Positions 1,904 to 31,543 of a stretch of DNA of 64,000 bases are shown here, piece after piece. Source of the DNA: Wickerhamiella versatilis. Its lineage: Eukaryota. Made by a program: the position numbers and the translations under genes. The notes below the pieces were generated by a model. The model was not told the DNA's origin and searched no databases. It saw only the letters and a program-made list of their open reading frames with translations. How positions within the stretch are numbered: position 1 is the first letter of the stretch; every line of letters begins with the position of its first letter. Location: the NCBI GenBank assembly GCA_030867685.1, contig JAQOWU010000008.1:1302001-1366000 (forward strand), given 5' to 3'.

Positions 1904-3127
1904 ATGCACCGCCGGCTTCATTCAGGTTCACTCTTTCGTGGGAGGCGTAACCAGCGAAGAACAAACAGATTCAATCTTTTAGTTGCTGGAAATGGAGGCT
2001 CAGGAAAGTCCACATTTATCAACACCTTGTGCGGGCATGAGGTTGCCCCGACCTCTGAGTGGTTAGATGAGGACCCCGCCCGCGCTGCGGTTGAGCCTTC
2101 CCTACGTTTACAGGTTTATACCGAAGATATCGCGGACCCGGAACTGGGTAACCTCACGTTAAGGCTGGTGGAGACGTGCCACTTGGGTGATCGCTTCGAT
2201 AATTCTTCCTCTGTGGATGCCATACAAAGGTATGTGGAGACACAATTTGATGAAGTTCTTGCTGAGGAAAGCAGGATTAGACGAAACCCGCGATTCACTG
2301 ATAATCGTCTACACGCGTGTATTTATCTCATTGAGGCCACGGGGCATGGTTTGGGTGAACGCGATATTGAATTTATGAGCCGCCTGGGTGAGCTCGTTAA
2401 TGTTATTCCTGTTCTCGCCAAGAGTGATGCTCTTACCCAGCAGGAAAAATTAACGAATAAACGCCTTATTAGCGAGGACATTGAACGTTATCAGATCCCC
2501 ATCTTCCAGTTTGCGGACTTGAGTGATGGTGAAGAAGAAGATGAAACAGATGAAAATGCTGGGGTGGGCCGACGTGTGGTGCTTGATTCAGTACAGGAAG
2601 CCCTACCTTTCACAATTATCGGTTCTAACAACCATGTGACTACAAGCGGCGGCCACCAGGTGCTTGCTCGCAGTTATCCATGGGGTACGGTAGCTGTGGA
2701 TGACCCCCAGGCATCGGAATTTCCCGTTCTTCGAAACCTGCTCCTGGAAAGTCACATGGAGTATATGAAGGAGACAACTTACGATGTTTTGTACGAAAAC
2801 TACCGTACTCAGCGCCTTTCTCATGATACTCATGCGCTAAAACTAGCAAATGATGATGCGACGCTGTCATATGCGCGAGGAAGCGCAGTACCTCAGGCTA
2901 CTAGCACGACCTCTTCTGCCAACCCCGGGACACAGCAGCAACCAGCGTATGTTGCTCGTGAGAATAGACTAAGGGAAGAGGAAGAGCTTCTTCATCGTGA
3001 TGAGCGTTTGCTGCAGTCAGAGCTCGATCAAAGGAAGCTCGAACTTGCCCAGAGAGAGGCAGAGTTGCAGAAGCTGGAGGAACGTCTGAAACAGGAGGCC
3101 AGTGAGGCTCCTACCCCTATTGGTTGA
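1904..3127 (+). CDS. SHS1: Septin of the Cdc11/Shs1 group, probably Shs1 (407 aa)
   Basis: P-loop GNGGSGKST, EESRIRRNPRF, VNVIPVLAKSD, RSYPWG, C-terminal coiled coil. N-terminal LFR plus basic patch resembles Shs1, and it lies next to PTP1 (both in the same S. cerevisiae YDL22x-23x block). First ATG at 1904. Confidence 0.75.
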   Translation: MHRRLHSGSLFRGRRNQRRTNRFNLLVAGNGGSGKSTFINTLCGHEVAPTSEWLDEDPARAAVEPSLRLQVYTEDIADPELGNLTLRLVETCHLGDRFDNSSSVDAIQRYVETQFDEVLAEESRIRRNPRFTDNRLHACIYLIEATGHGLGERDIEFMSRLGELVNVIPVLAKSDALTQQEKLTNKRLISEDIERYQIPIFQFADLSDGEEEDETDENAGVGRRVVLDSVQEALPFTIIGSNNHVTTSGGHQVLARSYPWGTVAVDDPQASEFPVLRNLLLESHMEYMKETTYDVLYENYRTQRLSHDTHALKLANDDATLSYARGSAVPQATSTTSSANPGTQQQPAYVARENRLREEEELLHRDERLLQSELDQRKLELAQREAELQKLEERLKQEASEAPTPIG

Positions 3128-3669
3128 ATCTCATGAATTTTTAAAAGTTCTTTCGAGCCCAGACACATTTGCGGTCTGGAGGAGGAACGATTTTGGAATA
3201 TACTTAAAGTAATATATACTCTTGCAGGAGTTGTGAGGTTAAGACACTAATGTGCAGTTGTTGTGCGTGTTTTATCAGAGTAGCTTCAAGCACATTTTTT
3301 TCTATTATTTTCTTTTTCTTTACTCATGATAGGCTAGCAATTGTTAGCTAAGAGTAACACATAAATAGTGAAGACATACATACGCAACAACTTGCAAGTT
3401 ACTTTTCTTTCTATTAATTAGTACTATACTACAATAGCCACAGAAACTGAATTGGTTCGAATGACGGGTACCTAAACGGTTTAGTGTACCTTTCGCGTTC
3501 TGTGCGCTAGTTTAAGCATCTTCAGAGAGGATCTTAATAATACGACGTCCCGCGATGTATCGTGATCAGTCAGCGAATACCTGACTGAGATGTTTGATTA
3601 CAAACACCAAGACTCGAATCGTTAGTGGGTATTCCCACCCCCACCAGTGCTGAAAAGAGTCCATAATTT

Positions 3670-5469
3670 ATGGGCATTTTTCGAAGTCAAAGTAGCTTAA
3701 AAGCTAGTTCGGTCACTAGCAGAAAGTCATCAGTGCCCTCTTCCTCTACTCCTTCTGGGCCATCCTTGAATTACTTGCTGCCGGAAGACCCCTCTGGAAA
3801 ATCACAGGAGCGATGCCATTGCGTCGCTGATGTGTTATTAGAAAATCGTTATAACTTGTTGCGAGCCGAGGAGCATGCCAGGTTTGAAGGGAAGTGTGGC
3901 CCCTTATGGTCTCGCGAGGTAAGTGAAAGGCCAGAGAATGCTGATCGTAATAGATACGCATCGGTTAGGCCCTGGGATCATTCCCGTGTGATACTTCCGG
4001 TTGAAGATAGTGAAAATGACTATATAGATGCTTCGTGGATTCAGCTGGGTTCGCGGGTTTATATCGCCGCCCAAGGTCCTCTGCCGTCCACCGTTGGTGA
4101 TTTCTGGCACATGGTATATGCTTATGGTGGTGAGCCTTCCCTTATTGTCATGTTAACCCCTCTCTATGAGCATTCTATCGAGAAGTGTTCCAAATATTGG
4201 CCAGATTCCAAAAATGAGCCTAGAGTGATACATGCTGAGCGCGGTTTCCATTTTGGATTTGGTATACATCTTGTTGGGTCTAAAGAGTATGAAAATTATA
4301 CATGGTCCACATTGCGCATTGTTCCAAGCGATGTATCCCGTCCCACCCGTACAGTGAATCATGTTTATTATCATTCTTGGTTGGACTACTCGAAACCCAA
4401 TGCAAATTCCGATCTCCATTCCCTAATTCACTTTCTTAACAATGATTTGAGGAATCAGGGCGCTCCTCCAATTGTGCATTGTTCTGCCGGGATCGGAAGG
4501 ACAGGTACCTTTATTGCCACCGATGCGTTGATGGCTAAAGTTGATATAAGCATCGAGCCATGCTACGGACCGGAAAATGGACCTGTTTGGCGTTGTCCAC
4601 CAAGTCAATTTGCATACCGGCCGACGCTTTTTAGCAATCATGAAGACAGCCGTCGTGGTTCGTCTGCTCCTGGAAGTCCGAACACCGTCAATATGCTGTC
4701 TAAGTATGACTTATCGTCCACAAAAAGCTTGAAAAGTCAATCGTGTGTATCTGTCAAGTCAAATGACAATGATAATGAGGCTGGTGACATACCTACGACC
4801 AAGAGGCCAGTGCCTAAGAGGTCCGCTGTGAGAAAAAGTGCACTTTCAGAAGCTATCAAACGGTCAGAGCCAGATGCCCAAGCTCTACAGGAACTAGTTG
4901 AAGATCAAGAATCTTGTGACTGTGATGCGCCATCACAAAGTAAGGCCAGGAAAGCGACAAACACCGAGCCATCTACAGAAAGTGGCGTAGAAGAGAGTAA
5001 TACACGGCCATCTGCCGTATCAGCGCTGCGTGGCCCTCCAATCAAGCACATAAAGGCTCGCACGGTAGAGGTTCCACCAGAAGAGCTTAGAGAGACCCCT
5101 GAGACTATTGATGTGAACAAGTGGTTTGATCCGTCCGATCCAGTTATGTCTTGTGTTCGTTGTATGCGAAAGCAAAGACCGAAGATGGTTCAAGGTAAAG
5201 AACAACTGGGCTATATTTATGATCAATTTGAAGTCTCCCTACAGTTATCCCGTGTTTCCAATGATAATAATAATGGCACCAAAAGTGGAGCCGCCTCTCT
5301 CAAAACCGCGGTTGCTGAATCGGGACCACAAAGCGTTTCGAGTAACAGTTCAGACATTTCATCTCGTTCCCAGTCAAAGAAGCAGGGTCTAAAGAACTTC
5401 TTGTTCCACGGAAGTTTTAGTTCTGTTAGAAGTACACACAGACGCGGCAGTACAGTTTCGAATCGATAG
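3670..5469 (+). CDS. PTP1: Protein tyrosine phosphatase Ptp1-like (599 aa)
   Basis: NRY, DYIDAS, YIAAQGP, KCSKYWP, WLD loop, VHCSAGIGRTGTF, Q-loop RKQRPKMVQ...EQLGYIY. Confidence 0.88.
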   Translation: MGIFRSQSSLKASSVTSRKSSVPSSSTPSGPSLNYLLPEDPSGKSQERCHCVADVLLENRYNLLRAEEHARFEGKCGPLWSREVSERPENADRNRYASVRPWDHSRVILPVEDSENDYIDASWIQLGSRVYIAAQGPLPSTVGDFWHMVYAYGGEPSLIVMLTPLYEHSIEKCSKYWPDSKNEPRVIHAERGFHFGFGIHLVGSKEYENYTWSTLRIVPSDVSRPTRTVNHVYYHSWLDYSKPNANSDLHSLIHFLNNDLRNQGAPPIVHCSAGIGRTGTFIATDALMAKVDISIEPCYGPENGPVWRCPPSQFAYRPTLFSNHEDSRRGSSAPGSPNTVNMLSKYDLSSTKSLKSQSCVSVKSNDNDNEAGDIPTTKRPVPKRSAVRKSALSEAIKRSEPDAQALQELVEDQESCDCDAPSQSKARKATNTEPSTESGVEESNTRPSAVSALRGPPIKHIKARTVEVPPEELRETPETIDVNKWFDPSDPVMSCVRCMRKQRPKMVQGKEQLGYIYDQFEVSLQLSRVSNDNNNGTKSGAASLKTAVAESGPQSVSSNSSDISSRSQSKKQGLKNFLFHGSFSSVRSTHRRGSTVSNR

Positions 5470-5713
5470 CCTTTATGCCTACTTTGATAAAGAATAATTT
5501 AAACTGCATAGTACCTGAATCACAGATTTCCTTTTCGTTGGACATGTGGTACCACGAAATATTTATGTGTACAGTGCAAAATCAATGCTTAAAGGACCGT
5601 CTTGCTTTTCTGTTCTCACTGACTCACTAAACATATCCCTAAACTGAAAGCAGCAATGGGTTTATAAATGACTGCTAAAACTAATTCATAATACGACAAA
5701 ATTTAGAAAAAAA

Positions 5714-8290
5714 CTAACCAGAGCACATCTCACACGCACCTGGGTTATTGATTGAGCATTGAATAACCTCGTCAGAAAAGATATCATAATCACCCTTACG
5801 CACACCAGAAGTATCTTGCTCGACGCTTGTGTCTGGGGTTGCTTCAACCTTTGGCGACACAGAACGTGAGGTCTCTACCGATACAGAAGACAGGTCCTGC
5901 TGCTCAGTCGTCATATGCGCCATGCGATTAGTGACATCATCAAGAGACGAACGTGGGACGTACTTCTTACGATAGAGAGGCTTAATCTGAGCATGACCAT
6001 CAGCATTAGCCACGCGTTCCTGATCAACAGTGAATTGAATAGGGGCAGATGCAGCCTGAGTACGTAGGTAATACATACCTGTCTTCAATCCCTTTGACCA
6101 TCCATAGAAGTGCATCGACGTAAGTTTTCCAATGGTCGGTGCTTGCATATGAATGTTAAGACTCTGTGACTGGTCAATATATGGGGCTCGCTCTGCTGCC
6201 ATATCAATAATAGCCTTCTGGCTGATCTCCCAGACCGTCTTGTAAAGCTGTTTCATGTCATCGGGGATATTCCTGAGATTTTGAATTGAACCACCCTCAG
6301 CAATTAGGCGATTTTTCATGTCTTCATTCCACAAACCCATGTCAACTAGATCTTTCAAAAGGTAGGGGTTCACGATTTGGAACTCTCCTGCAAGCACACG
6401 ACGAGAATAAAGATTAGAGGTATAGGGCTCAAAACATTCATTAAATCCCAATATCTGTGACGTAGACGCAGTTGGCATCGGAGCCACAAGTAGTGAGTTA
6501 CGCAAACCATACTTAGCCAATTTCTCCTTTAGTTCATCCCAGTTCCATAAATCAGTAGGCTCACGACCCCATAGGTCAAATTGCAATAAACCCTTGGAAG
6601 CAGGGCTACCTTCGTAAGTTTCGTAAGGACCAAACTCCCTCGCCAATTCAACACTTGACTCGAGTGCGGCGTGATAAATTGTTTCGAATATCTGGATGTT
6701 CAGCTGTCGAGCCTCAGGGCTGTCAAATGGAAGGCGTAACTCAAAGAAAGTGTCGGCCAACCCTTGAACACCTAGTGCAATTGGACGGTTCTTCATGTTT
6801 GAACGCCTAGCTTCCTCCACAGGATAGTAGTTACGATCAATAACTCGGTTGAGATTCCGTGTGATGATTTTGGCCACATCATGAAGTTTTTGGAAGTCAT
6901 ACCAGATTCCATCACCAGTAGCTTCTACGAAACGCGGCAAGGCCAGAGAGGCAAGATTGCACACTGCAGTCTCCTCTGGGGACGAGTACTCAACGATCTC
7001 GCAGCAAAGGTTTGATGACTTGATCGTACCAAGGTTTTGCTGATTAGATTTGCGGTTGCAGGCATCCTTATACAGCATAAATGGGGTTCCAGTCTCAGTT
7101 TGAGCCTCTATAATGGAATACCATAGCTTCTGAGCTTTAATGGTGCGACGACCTCTGCCCTCCTTTTCATATGTCGTATAAAGTTTTTCGAACTCCTCAC
7201 CGTAAACATCAGAGAGACCTGGGCACTCATTGGGACACATTAGAGTCCAGTCCCCATTATCTTTCACCCGCTGCATAAATAAGTCGGGAATCCAAAGTGC
7301 AACGAAAATATCACGGGCACGAATCTCTTCCTTACCATGATTCTTGCGCACATCAATGGTATCAAAAATATCATCATGCCACGGCTCAATATACATCGCA
7401 AAGGCACCAGGTCGCTTGTTACCACCCTGGTCAACATAGCGAGCAGTATTATTGTAGACACGCAACATGGGAATAAGCCCATTGGAAGTACCATTTGTAC
7501 CAGCGATGTAAGAGCCCGTGGCACGAATGTTGTGAATACTGAGGCCAATTCCTCCGGCATTCTTTGAAATCAAGGCACATTCCTTGAGCGTATCATAGAT
7601 ACCATCAATACTATCATCCTTCATCGTTACCAAGAAGCAGGAAGACATTTGTGGCTTTGGAGTTCCTGCATTGTAGAGGGTTGGACTGGCATGAATGAAG
7701 TATTTTTGTGACATCCATTGGTAGGTTTCGAGAACAGCTGGGATATCCTCGCCATGGATACCCACGGCAACTCTCATTATCATGTGCTGAGGTCTTTCCC
7801 ATACCTTACCATTATACTTCAGCAGGTATGATCGCTCCAATGTCTTGAATCCGAAGAAATTGAAATTGAAGTCTCGATCATACACTATTGCCGAGTTTAG
7901 TTCCTCAGCGTGCTTCACGACAGTGCCATAGAGCTCCTCCGATATCATTGGACTATGCCGACGGTTTCGCGGATTAACGTATTCATAAAGATCTTTCATA
8001 ACCTCGCTAAATTGCTTTTTCGTCTGCTTGTGCAGGTTCGAAACCGCGATACGAGCTGCAAGAACGGCATAATCAGGGTGAACGGTAGTCATATAAGCAG
8101 CAGTTTCGGCAGCTAGGTTGTCTAGTTCAACTGTGGATACTCCGTTGTAAACGCCAGAAATCACACGCTGGGTGATCGCGACTGCGTCAATATGATAAGG
8201 GTCGAGCCCATAGCACAGTCGCCTCACACGAGATGTGATTTTGTCGAACTGAACTGGTTCTGACCGTCCGTCACGCTTGAATACTCGCAT
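5714..8290 (-). CDS. RNR1: Ribonucleotide reductase large subunit (858 aa)
   Basis: ATP cone [40 protein letters not shown]-terminal CEMCSG. ATG at 8290. Confidence 0.97.
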
Positions 8291-27513: not shown

Positions 27514-29736
27514 TCAAAAAGCACTTATTCTGCTGAGTTGAGGCCACTCTCGCTTATACAATGCCATAGCTATAACATCTTGAGCCTTTATCTTGCGGTC
27601 AAATGTAGCTTTGAAGTTACCATGAGTTCCCAACGCTTCCTTTATAAAACCATGAGCACCTGATTTTGTGAATAAGGGAACTGCCTGGAACCATGATATA
27701 TCCTCGGAGTTGAATAACATGTAGCGTACAGTGACAAGTTTGCGATGTATTTTCACTGGGAAGCCAGTGAGGATTGCGGTCTTGACTATGACTCGGTCAG
27801 AATCTGTATCTATCAGTGAGCCTGTCCCCACAATCCTTGGTTCGCTTGGACTAGGAGAGAAGTACACGACGGGTGCATTACCAAAGAATAAAGGTGCCAT
27901 CATGGTAGCACTGGCGTTGAGCCCTAAATGAATGAGCCGGTGTAGCTTGTAGATGTCGTTATCATGATGACCCGACTGACTGAACAAAGGATTAACTATC
28001 AGTCTTCTAGGACCATGTTGCATTAAGAGCTCAGATTTGGATTTAAGTGGCTCTGTGAATTCACTATCAAGATTGAATGAAGTCGAAACCGTCGCGAGCT
28101 TTTGTTCACCAGGAAGCAATCCGTATAAGGCGCTTGAAGTTAGTTTGGATGGGTTGATGCTTTCAAAAGACCTGTTTCCGCGGAGCTCTACTATAACTCG
28201 TGTTCCAACAGGAGCCCCAAACCCTTCTATTTCCTTGCGAATATGATTCCCCACGGCAGTCGTATTTTCTGGCCGTGCGAGCCTTGTGAACTCTGCAGGT
28301 GTCTTAAGATCTTTTTCGTTTGGATCCCACTCAGCAGATTTGAAGTCCAGAATACCCCTATAACGGCTTAGTCTAGCTTTTCCACTTTCTCTGGGGTCAA
28401 GCTCGATTTCGTCAGGGAAATCTAGTTCATCCTGCTGTTCCCGCTGCTCTCGTGCCTCGTTCAGTTCTGCATCATCAACTTCCTGATCCAATTCCATTTC
28501 ACCTGCTTCATCGTTGCCATCTTCTTCAATTAACTCACCCTCCTCATCACTCAATAGCTCATTGGGTTCTTCCACTTCGTCGTCTGAATCCATACGGTAA
28601 TCTTCGCCCTCCAGCATCCAAGTGGCCTGGTAATCTGAGACGCCTCGAGGCTTGCTTTTGAGAGGTTGGTTATTTGCGAGGTCTTTCGTCATCGACTCTG
28701 TGATATACGAATGTCCAATGACATTTATTCCTTTATCAGAATTTTGATCAGGATCATGAAGTTCTACAGATTCCTCGCATAATGGATCCAGTGACTGTGT
28801 GTTCTCAGGAAGCCAGTTTTGCGGGTCCACGTCCATACCTGCATTACCAACCGGAACTTCCCGTATACTCTCAACAGCAAGGTCACCATATGTTACTAGG
28901 TGTAATAAGTGACTAGGGGAAAGAGGTTTACCACGGACGAAACCCTCAACTGCCAAAGTTTGCGAGTCCGCATTAACTTCAGCCTTTTCTATAACCAGCC
29001 ACGGACGTTCATCACGCCAGTTAATACCTCGAGGAGATTTCTGGCATAAAGTACGGATGCAATTTTGGGTTTCTGAGGGATTATCGACAGATATGATTTT
29101 TTCCCCTGCGAAGAAATGGCTAAACCAGCTTGAGAGACTTTGTCTAATCTGAGTTTGGCGTTTGGCACCACCACTAACTTGTGAAAGATTCTGTACAACC
29201 CCCAGGGAGGTGGTAACACCTTGAGACGCTATACATCTGATAACTTGCTCACCATAATCATCAATTTCTTTTTCTGCGGAGAGTGCAAAAACTACAAAGT
29301 CCGCACCACGGGCTGCATCAAGCATTTCATAAAAAGATCCATATGAGGGCAAAAAAAATCGAAGTCTCTGTCTGAATCGTGATATCCAGGCAGTATTAGG
29401 TATATCAGGGTCGACCTCACCCTCAGACACCTCAATTAGTCGCCGACCAACTGCTGTAGAATCGATATCATCTGTTAGTGGCACGATAACCACATTTTTA
29501 GGTACTCCATGCCGACCATCAAATATTTTTGTACGTTCATAGGCTTTTGATTGCTTTACTGCTTTTAGCTGATTTGACAAATTACGCCGATCATGTTTCG
29601 ACAAAGTTCCTCCCTTCAATCCAGATTTATGTCCTGCAATTCTACCCTTGTTCTCATCCTTTATGGAACCTTTTGAGGAATGCCGAGTCTTAAAAGCCTT
29701 TTGCTTCTTTTTCAAGGTTGGCCTATGCACTGCCAT
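27514..29736 (-). CDS. TSR1: Pre-40S assembly factor Tsr1 (740 aa)
   Basis: MAVHRPTLKKKQKAFKTRHSSKGSIK start, DELDFPDEIEL, C-terminal GFIKEALGTHGNFKATFD..IKAQDVIAMALYKREWP. True ATG at 29736. Confidence 0.95.
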   Translation of the reverse strand: MAVHRPTLKKKQKAFKTRHSSKGSIKDENKGRIAGHKSGLKGGTLSKHDRRNLSNQLKAVKQSKAYERTKIFDGRHGVPKNVVIVPLTDDIDSTAVGRRLIEVSEGEVDPDIPNTAWISRFRQRLRFFLPSYGSFYEMLDAARGADFVVFALSAEKEIDDYGEQVIRCIASQGVTTSLGVVQNLSQVSGGAKRQTQIRQSLSSWFSHFFAGEKIISVDNPSETQNCIRTLCQKSPRGINWRDERPWLVIEKAEVNADSQTLAVEGFVRGKPLSPSHLLHLVTYGDLAVESIREVPVGNAGMDVDPQNWLPENTQSLDPLCEESVELHDPDQNSDKGINVIGHSYITESMTKDLANNQPLKSKPRGVSDYQATWMLEGEDYRMDSDDEVEEPNELLSDEEGELIEEDGNDEAGEMELDQEVDDAELNEAREQREQQDELDFPDEIELDPRESGKARLSRYRGILDFKSAEWDPNEKDLKTPAEFTRLARPENTTAVGNHIRKEIEGFGAPVGTRVIVELRGNRSFESINPSKLTSSALYGLLPGEQKLATVSTSFNLDSEFTEPLKSKSELLMQHGPRRLIVNPLFSQSGHHDNDIYKLHRLIHLGLNASATMMAPLFFGNAPVVYFSPSPSEPRIVGTGSLIDTDSDRVIVKTAILTGFPVKIHRKLVTVRYMLFNSEDISWFQAVPLFTKSGAHGFIKEALGTHGNFKATFDRKIKAQDVIAMALYKREWPQLSRISAF

Positions 29737-29788
29737 TAGTGTACCAAAAAATATTACATAATTTTTAGTATTACTGTTTAGTGTAATT

Positions 29789-29801
29789 TTAGGGCTTAGG
29801 G
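29789..29801 (+). promoter_or_regulatory. TTAGGG-C-TTAGGG, Tbf1/telobox-type site in the TSR1-RPS29 divergent promoter
   Basis: Two direct TTAGGG repeats in the 129-bp intergenic region. Confidence 0.5.
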
Positions 29802-29865
29802 TGTTAGTAAAGAATGCTGCCTCGTCGACGTGCCGCGAGCACGGTACATTTCGCTTAGATACAAG

Positions 29866-30036
29866 ATGGCTCACGAGAACGTTTGGTTCAGTCACCCACG
29901 CCGTTACGGTAAGGGCTCTCGCTCGTGCCGCATTACTGGCTCCCGTAATGCCCTCATTCGCAAATATGGCATCAACCTCTCTCGTCAGTGCTTCCGTGAA
30001 AAGGCTGCTGACATCGGCTTCGAGAAGCACCGCTAA
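29866..30036 (+). CDS. RPS29: 40S ribosomal protein S29 (uS14), 56 aa
   Basis: [56 protein letters not shown]; strongly biased codons; divergent from TSR1 like RPS29B. Confidence 0.96.
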
Positions 30037-30349
30037 ATCTATATGAGAGCAGGCTAAAAATAAGTTGCTTCGCTCCAACCACCCATCAGGGTTGATTTGA
30101 TACTCATTTAGTGTATATACGCATGAGTATCTTTGCAAAGTGGCGCTAGCGATAACAAATTAGCGAAAATTCGCAAATATATAGGTAATGTAGCCCCTTG
30201 AATTCTCTATTCGTCTTAAATAGCAATTGCTCGGAACAAGTTCATTATTGTGCTAACAGGGTAGACTAGGTGTACCAGGTTGGTTCGATCCTTTTCCATA
30301 TATTAGAATTAGGTAATTGTTCAACTTCTTATTTTCTCTTGGTTACACA

Positions 30350-31543
30350 ATGTCGGCTGAAGCTGCAATAAGTTTCACATGTAATACTTGTGGCCTCGGG
30401 TTTAGGACCGCTGAATATCAGAGAGAGCATATGAAGACTGATTGGCACCGTTACAATCTAAAACGTCGGGTTGCTGATTTGCCGCCTATACCCTCTGACG
30501 TTTTCGCTGAAAAGATGGTCCAACAGCGCACACTACAGTTAGATCAATTGAAAAAAGATAGCAATAGGCGGCAAGTGACCAAAAAAGATTTGCGTCGGCA
30601 AGAGAAGCAACGTGCTCGCGAAGCAAATGCGCCCAGAACGAAATCTCCGTCAGTCGCTTCCCGAACTTCAAGCCTTACAAGTGCTGTATCAGGGTTTTCT
30701 TTAGACGATCCAGTTCAAGAGCTTCCCAGTGATATGGACTCAGATACGGAGGCGTTTTCGCATCCTCCCCAAATTCCTGAGGAGGAAGAGGAGGTTGGTG
30801 AGACAGGCGACGCTGTTGATGCTCTGCTCAAAGAAAAGCAGGCCACAATGGTTCAGATCCCACCTAATGTATGTTTCGTTGACGGTAAGAAATTCGAGTC
30901 AGTAGATGAAAATGTGAAATACCTGGAAAGACGCTACGGTATGGTTATTCCAGATCGCAAGTATTTGGTTGATCTCGAGGGTTTGATTGAGTACTTCAAT
31001 GAAAAGGTAGGCATTGGAAACTGCTGTCTTCATTGCACTTACATGGGTCGATCACTTGAGGCAGTTAGGTCGCATATGCTGGACAAGCAACACATTAAAA
31101 TTCCTTATGAATCAGACCAAGACAGAGATGAACTAATGGACTTCTATGACTATTCGGATACACAGGACGATGAAGGTTGGGAGGACCTTGGCGAAGATGA
31201 AGATGGTGATGCTGGTCCTGTAGTGAAGGAAGAGGATCTCAATTCTGAGGGTGACGTATTTGTTAATGGATACGAACTTGTTCTAGGTGACAGTGGGCGT
31301 ACTGCTGGACACAGATCGCTGCAGCGGTATTTCAAGCAGCGATTGATGCCTGTCAAGGAGCAGCCCAAAGGCCAGAAGGCTGTTCGACTTATTGACAACC
31401 GCTCACCCGGTATCGGGGAGAGGCAAGCTAACAATATGGTCAAGTCTGAGTGGAGAGAGAGACAAAGAATGCTTCGTGTCGAGGCTCGCGGTAGAAAACA
31501 GCAAAATTTCCAGAAGCATTACCGAGATGAACTCCTTCAGTAA
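30350..31543 (+). CDS. REH1: Pre-60S factor Reh1/Rei1 (C2H2 zinc fingers), 397 aa
   Basis: FTCNTC...QREHMKTDWHRYNLKRRVA, AGHRSLQRYFKQ, C-terminal NFQKHYRDELLQ. Lies between RPS29 and VAC14 like REH1; the sequence alone cannot separate REI1 from REH1. Confidence 0.85.
   Translation: MSAEAAISFTCNTCGLGFRTAEYQREHMKTDWHRYNLKRRVADLPPIPSDVFAEKMVQQRTLQLDQLKKDSNRRQVTKKDLRRQEKQRAREANAPRTKSPSVASRTSSLTSAVSGFSLDDPVQELPSDMDSDTEAFSHPPQIPEEEEEVGETGDAVDALLKEKQATMVQIPPNVCFVDGKKFESVDENVKYLERRYGMVIPDRKYLVDLEGLIEYFNEKVGIGNCCLHCTYMGRSLEAVRSHMLDKQHIKIPYESDQDRDELMDFYDYSDTQDDEGWEDLGEDEDGDAGPVVKEEDLNSEGDVFVNGYELVLGDSGRTAGHRSLQRYFKQRLMPVKEQPKGQKAVRLIDNRSPGIGERQANNMVKSEWRERQRMLRVEARGRKQQNFQKHYRDELLQ

Follow-up and report, generated by a model that had tools for sequence, protein, structure and literature searches.

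A highly expressed cytosolic uS14 (Rps29) retaining two of four zinc-ligand cysteines in a Dipodascales yeast, and the spread of ligand loss among fungi

Genes at the locus

The window, by which we mean the whole 64-kb stretch of DNA analysed here, carries a gene for ribosomal protein uS14 (Rps29, gene RPS29) at positions 29866..30036 of the forward strand. Its translation is an uninterrupted protein of 56 residues, encoded by 56 codons followed by TAA, and the extent and intron-free structure of the coding sequence are supported by the open reading frame itself, the Pfam match, full-length matches to solved chains and RNA reads free of splice joints. The protein matches Pfam family PF00253 (Ribosomal_S14) over residues 7-54 with 46.4 bits (cut-off 27), and its residues 1-56 align with residues 1-56 of S. 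cerevisiae Rps29 (chain 3j6x_29), the best match among solved chains (E = 1.4e-27), as well as with residues 1-56 of the solved eukaryotic chains 3j80_d, 7pzy_e and 9axt_Aj. The family match and the full-length alignments to eukaryotic chains confirm a sequence-only reading of this DNA, which had called the protein a eukaryote-type cytosolic uS14. The gene is an ordinary cytosolic uS14 gene of a Dipodascales yeast, and its product would belong to the 40S subunit.

The divergent left neighbour (27514..29736, reverse strand) encodes the 40S biogenesis factor TSR1 and contains the Pfam domains RIBIOP_C, Tsr1_G-like and AARP2CN, so that the position beside TSR1, also claimed from the letters alone, holds. 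We take RPS29B of S. cerevisiae to adjoin TSR1 as well. The TSR1 protein of the window has one identical database counterpart and one relative at 70% identity; its nearest named relative is TSR1 of Wickerhamiella sorbophila, at 49%. According to the ORF coordinates, TSR1 and RPS29 are separated by a divergent intergenic region of 129 bp (29737..29865), the shared promoter region of the two genes. Downstream of RPS29, on the forward strand, lies a gene for a C2H2 zinc-finger protein (30350..31543; Pfam zf-C2H2_2, 109.6 bits), which is presumably REI1-like.

Upstream of its ATG, the TSR1 reading frame continues without a stop codon through the intergenic region and then, in antisense orientation, through all of the RPS29 coding sequence (29737-30138, reverse strand), and this antisense extension is used by an 874-residue TSR1 model in the protein collection (P0121). 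The window Rps29 is itself absent from that collection, probably because P0121 runs antisense through its gene. P0121 differs from the antisense translation of the window by a single residue, V to G, which implies a change of A to C at 29894; on the sense strand, the conserved His10 of Rps29 would thereby become Pro. The letter occurs in none of the four runs aligned to the locus; the contig from which P0121 was derived probably contains an error here, or else a rare variant.

No second copy of uS14 is present within the 64 kb, and a Pfam scan of the 35 window ORFs of at least 120 residues revealed no other cytosolic zinc ribosomal protein (eS26, eS27, eS31, eL37, eL43 and others). For zinc-responsive elements of the Zap1 type we used a consensus that we take to be that of S. 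cerevisiae. No such site, with up to two mismatches allowed, lies in the 129-bp region between TSR1 and RPS29, and the 29 sites found across the window compare with 27.6 expected by chance; the S. cerevisiae consensus may not apply to this yeast, and both counts should be read accordingly.

Zinc-ligand positions of the protein

S. cerevisiae Rps29A/B is an orthologue of the same length (56 residues), aligns with the window protein from end to end at 77% identity (P0009) and differs in having all four cysteines (CRVC...CRQC); according to the available part of Table 1 in PMC13090322, it is annotated as zinc-binding. In the alignment with chain 3j6x_29, these four cysteines face Cys21, Thr24, Ser39 and Cys42 of the window protein. 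By codon reading and alignment, the first ligand position is kept at codon 21 (TGC, 29926..29928) and the fourth at codon 42 (TGC, 29989..29991); the second is lost to Thr at codon 24 (ACT, 29935..29937) and the third to Ser at codon 39 (TCT, 29980..29982), all on the forward strand, and for the two lost positions the sequencing reads agree. Neither replaced position carries His, Asp or Glu. With Thr24 and Ser39, the protein lacks the C4 ("C+") signature of two CxxC knuckles at positions 21/24/39/42. That only Cys21 and Cys42 are left of the four ligands had been the central observation of the sequence-only reading, and it stands on translation, on the alignment to S. cerevisiae and on the reads.

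Read support and expression

Reads were aligned over the 1001 bases from 29400 to 30400 of the window, using two raw RNA runs (X21 and X24) and two DNA assemblies; this same 1001-base stretch is present whole in 14 public runs from 10 studies, and the RNA runs carry the species label of one DNA run among them. Within the RPS29 coding sequence, none of the four data sets contained a differing letter, an indel or a splice joint. The RNA runs do differ from the window at four fixed positions, all outside the coding sequence: 29491, 29498 and 29725 in TSR1, and 30114 in the 3' UTR of RPS29 (2400/2402 and 5411/5414 reads in X24). These four differences show that the RNA runs represent another strain and are therefore independent of the window assembly; they amount to strain-level variation inside one species label. 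The possibility of an assembly error, which the sequence-only reading had itself raised, was thereby checked, and the Thr and Ser codons are upheld by the RNA of another strain and by two DNA assemblies.

Over most of RPS29, RNA depth per read direction is approximately 2900-6300 in the poly(A) run X24 and 1000-1850 in X21, and over TSR1 it is below 10 in X24 and approximately 18-110 in X21; between the two genes, at 29740-29841, it falls close to zero. The RPS29 mRNA extends over 29857..30220 of the forward strand. Its capped 5' ends are marked by loose ends of template-switch oligonucleotide before 29853-29863, with 2587 reads at 29857, the main start, and poly(A) is added at approximately 30215-30220, as judged from loose poly(A) ends in 29 reads behind 30215 and 106 reads behind 30220. 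The leader is very short, with most capped ends lying 9 nt ahead of the ATG.

The codon usage of the gene is strongly biased, as had been claimed. Third-position GC content is 0.64, whereas 37 other window ORFs range from 0.33 to 0.49; all nine Arg codons are CGC or CGT, compared with a background of 39%. RNA depth in the thousands, capped and polyadenylated ends and codon bias together place expression at the level of ribosomal protein genes, and in this respect the gene resembles a principal ribosomal protein gene.

Ligand loss among fungal uS14 proteins

A search with the window protein returned a fungal-dominated set of homologues, and the four ligand positions were read in an alignment of the 120 listed clusters. 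All four cysteines are present in 86 of these clusters; 28 lack two or more ligands, three lack one, and another three, which look like gene-model errors, have a first knuckle with Trp or gaps. The database proteins P0109, P0110, P0118-P0120, P0111, P0115 and P0117, with Trp or a gap at positions 21-27, look like mis-spliced models at an intron near the first knuckle rather than real variants. The four-Cys form is kept in Lachancea, Saccharomyces, Hanseniaspora, Komagataella, Lipomyces and many Pezizomycotina. The closest homologues of the window protein are eukaryotic uS14 proteins of 73-88% identity, with four-Cys forms among them, and the nearest, P0001 (88%), has the same ligand pattern as the window protein.

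Among the depleted forms, Zygotorulaspora mrakii (P0005) reads C-T-C-S at the four ligand positions, S. pombe (P0026) C-T-S-S and Kluyveromyces marxianus (P0256) C-S-D-S, the latter two retaining only Cys21. The S. pombe protein, 75% identical to that of the window, is identical in sequence to PDB chain 9axt_Aj (3 entries), and the K. marxianus protein, 73% identical, to chain 3j80_d (17 entries); we take the species labels of these PDB entries to be S. pombe and Kluyveromyces. Like the window protein, both have 56 residues and a degraded zinc ribbon, and both are present in solved ribosome structures; they differ from it in having lost three ligands, not two, and in belonging to other fungal lineages, in which the losses would be independent. 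On taxonomic grounds, the losses in S. pombe, Kluyveromyces, Zygotorulaspora and Dipodascales can be considered separate events. In the available part of Table 2 of PMC11508205, K. lactis and S. pombe are each credited with one uS14 gene, which indicates that those yeasts live on a Cys-depleted uS14 alone.

The sequence-only reading had treated the variant as a rarity, and this part of it has to be given up: the loss is widespread in fungi, with 28/120 clusters affected, and it occurs in Starmerella, Yarrowia, Nadsonia, Zygotorulaspora, Kluyveromyces and S. pombe. That reading had also asked whether the variant might be both widespread and already described in yeasts. Widespread it is; a description is another matter, and no printed account of Cys-depleted uS14 in yeasts or fungi was found in the literature searched, from which subscription journals and supplements were excluded. 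PMC13090322 (2026), in the portion available, states that Rps29/uS14 maintains its CxxC motif in diverse eukaryotic species, comparing six model organisms, and in its section 2.5 uS14 is, as usual, treated as a zinc-binding ribosomal protein conserved in eukaryotes. The paper has S. pombe data elsewhere, and the available part of its Table 1 has no S. pombe column. The methods of PMC8807834, likewise available in part, mention that E. cuniculi has a zinc-coordinating and a zinc-free gene for some ribosomal proteins, whose names are not given there; the available parts of PMC10522483 and PMC11508205 mention only bacterial paralogues. The window protein adds one more case to the Cys-depleted uS14 proteins of fungi, a widespread class that is public as sequences and apparently little discussed.

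Relation to zinc-free S14 of bacteria

Bacteria use zinc-free S14 paralogues under zinc limitation, as described in the available parts of PMC13090322 and PMC11508205. These bacterial C- forms, for example in the Zur-regulated pair of B. subtilis, belong to the same family, PF00253, and likewise lack the CxxC pairs. The bacterial C- protein is a paralogue that is induced when zinc is limiting and exists alongside a C+ form, whereas the window protein is of the eukaryotic type, highly expressed, probably the sole copy and of independent origin. Its independent origin follows from its 77% identity to the four-Cys Rps29 of S. cerevisiae; descent from the bacterial C- lineage is at odds with nearest relatives that are all eukaryotic (73-88%), and the ligand loss arose within fungi. 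The proposed convergence with bacterial zinc-independent S14 accordingly survives insofar as the replacements are similar and the origins independent, and fails insofar as it implied a rare event. Disrupted Zn-ribbons in bacterial ribosomal proteins were reportedly described by Makarova, Ponomarev and Koonin in 2001.

Sequence signature of the depleted forms

A second search started from 15 aligned Cys-depleted proteins and enlarged the collection to 177 clusters, in which depleted forms are over-represented by design; with this enrichment, 109 of the 177 clusters still have all four cysteines. The same enrichment applies to the 161 unique 56-residue cores extracted from the set, 99 of which are four-Cys, 56 lack Cys24 and six are unclear. 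Cys21 is kept in 55 of the 56 depleted cores, even in cores without any other ligand. Thr occupies position 24 in 44 of the 56 and Ser occupies position 39 in 44, and Gly25 is found in 53 of the 56 depleted cores as against 14 of the 99 four-Cys cores. To judge from these alignments, unrelated lineages have arrived at Thr/Ser-Gly repeatedly, which suggests that a knuckle without metal is stabilised in the same structural way, and Cys21 may have some function besides metal binding.

An AlphaFold2 model built from a 15-row alignment was too poor to use (mean pLDDT 52, pTM 0.35). The identity of 73-77% to solved chains suggests that the window protein would have the zinc-ribbon fold.

History of the loss in Dipodascales

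By taxonomy, Starmerella bacillaris, Yarrowia lipolytica, Nadsonia fulvescens and Wickerhamiella sorbophila all belong to Dipodascales. S29B of Starmerella bacillaris (P0286), a protein of the same order, has the same Cys21-Thr24-Ser39-Cys42 as the window protein and shares a stretch of 14 residues with it, and the representative of its cluster (P0004) is 81% identical to the window protein; P0286 differs in its length of 59 residues, in another N-terminus as annotated and in coming from another species. Yarrowia lipolytica (P0290) and Nadsonia fulvescens (P0003, 86% identical to the window protein) have Thr24 as in the window, so that the first knuckle is broken likewise, and they differ in keeping Cys39, in having Ser42 (C-T-C-S) and in having Asn25 in place of Gly25.

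Thr24 and the stretch RNA(L/V)IRKY are common to every named Dipodascales sequence seen, which indicates that the loss of Cys24 in the window genome was inherited. The second lost ligand varies within the order: it is at position 39 in the window protein, P0001, P0285 and Starmerella, and at position 42 in Yarrowia and Nadsonia. This distribution would be accounted for most simply if Cys24 was lost once, early in the order, and another ligand then decayed independently in different branches. Since the second ligand differs among close relatives, relaxed constraint after the first break is more likely than adaptation, and a neutral second loss would be expected once the site had ceased to bind zinc. 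The order thus probably has a zinc-free uS14 that was inherited, not newly evolved in the window genome.

Pairs of uS14 forms in Dothideomycetes

Both a four-Cys and a Cys-depleted uS14 were observed in several Dothideomycetes, namely Paraphaeosphaeria sporulosa (P0084 and P0280), P. minitans (P0059 and P0282), Zopfia rhizophila (P0107 and P0277) and Hortaea werneckii (P0060 and P0251/P0267). The depleted proteins of these fungi have roughly 58 residues and mostly read C-T-S-A at the ligand positions. Many further Dothideomycetes have comparable depleted forms, as do Exophiala spinifera, a Xylariales isolate and a cluster that includes Diaporthe vaccinii. The two forms in Dothideomycetes resemble the C+/C- paralogue pairs known from bacteria.

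Interpretation

Taken together, these observations make it likely that the window gene encodes the main uS14 copy of its genome, that the protein is zinc-free, that this condition was inherited and that the second ligand loss was not specifically adaptive. The gene would be the constitutive, very highly expressed main uS14 gene of a Dipodascales yeast close to Wickerhamiella and Starmerella, and, we infer, the only uS14 gene of that genome. Its product most likely no longer holds structural zinc; the two hairpins would be kept in shape by contacts within the 40S head or with rRNA, together with small polar side chains that take the place of the metal.

Adaptive zinc sparing, proposed in the sequence-only reading as a possible cause, would mean that selection for a lower cellular demand for zinc removed the site from an abundant ribosomal protein. 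RPS29 is among the most abundant transcripts at the locus, so that each site counts in bulk; ligand loss is repeated across several fungal lineages, with comparable replacements (Thr/Ser-Gly at 24-25, Ser39), and such recurrence can indicate selection; and the zinc-free S14 paralogues of zinc-limited bacteria, as presented in the available parts of PMC13090322 and PMC11508205, provide a precedent. The recurring pattern of replacement is, however, equally explicable by structural constraint, and the differing second ligands of close relatives fit drift after inactivation of the site. Moreover, uS14 is one of about nine CxxC-type ribosomal proteins in the available text of PMC13090322 (section 2.5), so the saving would be small unless the others had changed too. 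We regard zinc sparing as an unlikely cause of the loss in this yeast.

It is also improbable that a residual metal site persists, formed by Cys21 and Cys42 with water, the backbone, an rRNA group or Ser/Thr oxygens. The window protein and that of Starmerella do keep one cysteine in each knuckle, and the presence of Cys21 in nearly every depleted core suggests that this residue continues to matter. Its retention can equally be explained by packing, however; the replaced positions offer none of the side chains (His, Asp or Glu) that might substitute for cysteine, and relatives with cysteines at 21 and 39, or with Cys21 alone, still build ribosomes, so the protein does not depend on any one pair. 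We also considered a disulfide between Cys21 and Cys42 as a substitute for the metal and rejected it as unlikely in the reducing cytosol, the more so as relatives keep other pairs or a single cysteine.

Comparably doubtful is the proposal that the window gene is the Cys-depleted member of a pair, with a four-Cys uS14 encoded elsewhere in the genome as in bacteria and some Dothideomycetes. The named Dothideomycetes with both forms show that such an arrangement occurs in fungi. Against its application here, the window copy adjoins TSR1, is very highly expressed in two RNA studies and is strongly codon-biased, as would be expected of a main copy, and the 64-kb window holds no partner. In addition, one Cys-depleted gene suffices for K. 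lactis and for S. pombe, according to the available part of PMC11508205.

Finally, there is virtually no chance that the true codons specify Cys and that an assembly or sequencing error has altered them: thousands of RNA reads from another strain and two DNA assemblies have identical letters and refute this explanation, related species have the same residues, and the Thr24 codon ACT lies two base changes away from a Cys codon (TGT).

Implications

Our preferred reading, that of an inherited, zinc-free main uS14, leaves the locus with little importance of its own: it holds a normal uS14 whose degraded site is common to the order and to model yeasts with solved ribosomes. The fungal-wide pattern deserves a short comparative study, as 28 of the 120 clusters deviate from a zinc-binding status that is considered "conserved", and this pattern, the paralogue pairs above all, would be the more interesting if it were linked to zinc.

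One broader scenario, which we consider speculative and rather improbable, is that zinc-independent uS14 arose repeatedly in fungi, and in either of two modes. In the first mode, outright replacement, the single gene would have been replaced in all named Dipodascales seen and, separately, in Kluyveromyces, Zygotorulaspora and S. pombe. In the second, a C+/C- pair would have been kept, in Dothideomycetes and some other Pezizomycotina, and could allow switching with zinc supply as in bacteria. If zinc economy did drive the losses, they would represent a eukaryotic counterpart of bacterial zinc-responsive ribosome remodelling; we found no account of this kind in the literature searched.

Whatever drove it, the loss of ligands bears on estimates of the share of cellular zinc that is held by ribosomes and on any role of Rps29 cysteines in sensing redox state or zinc, and it raises the question of whether zinc-responsive switching between ribosomal paralogues may take place in eukaryotes.
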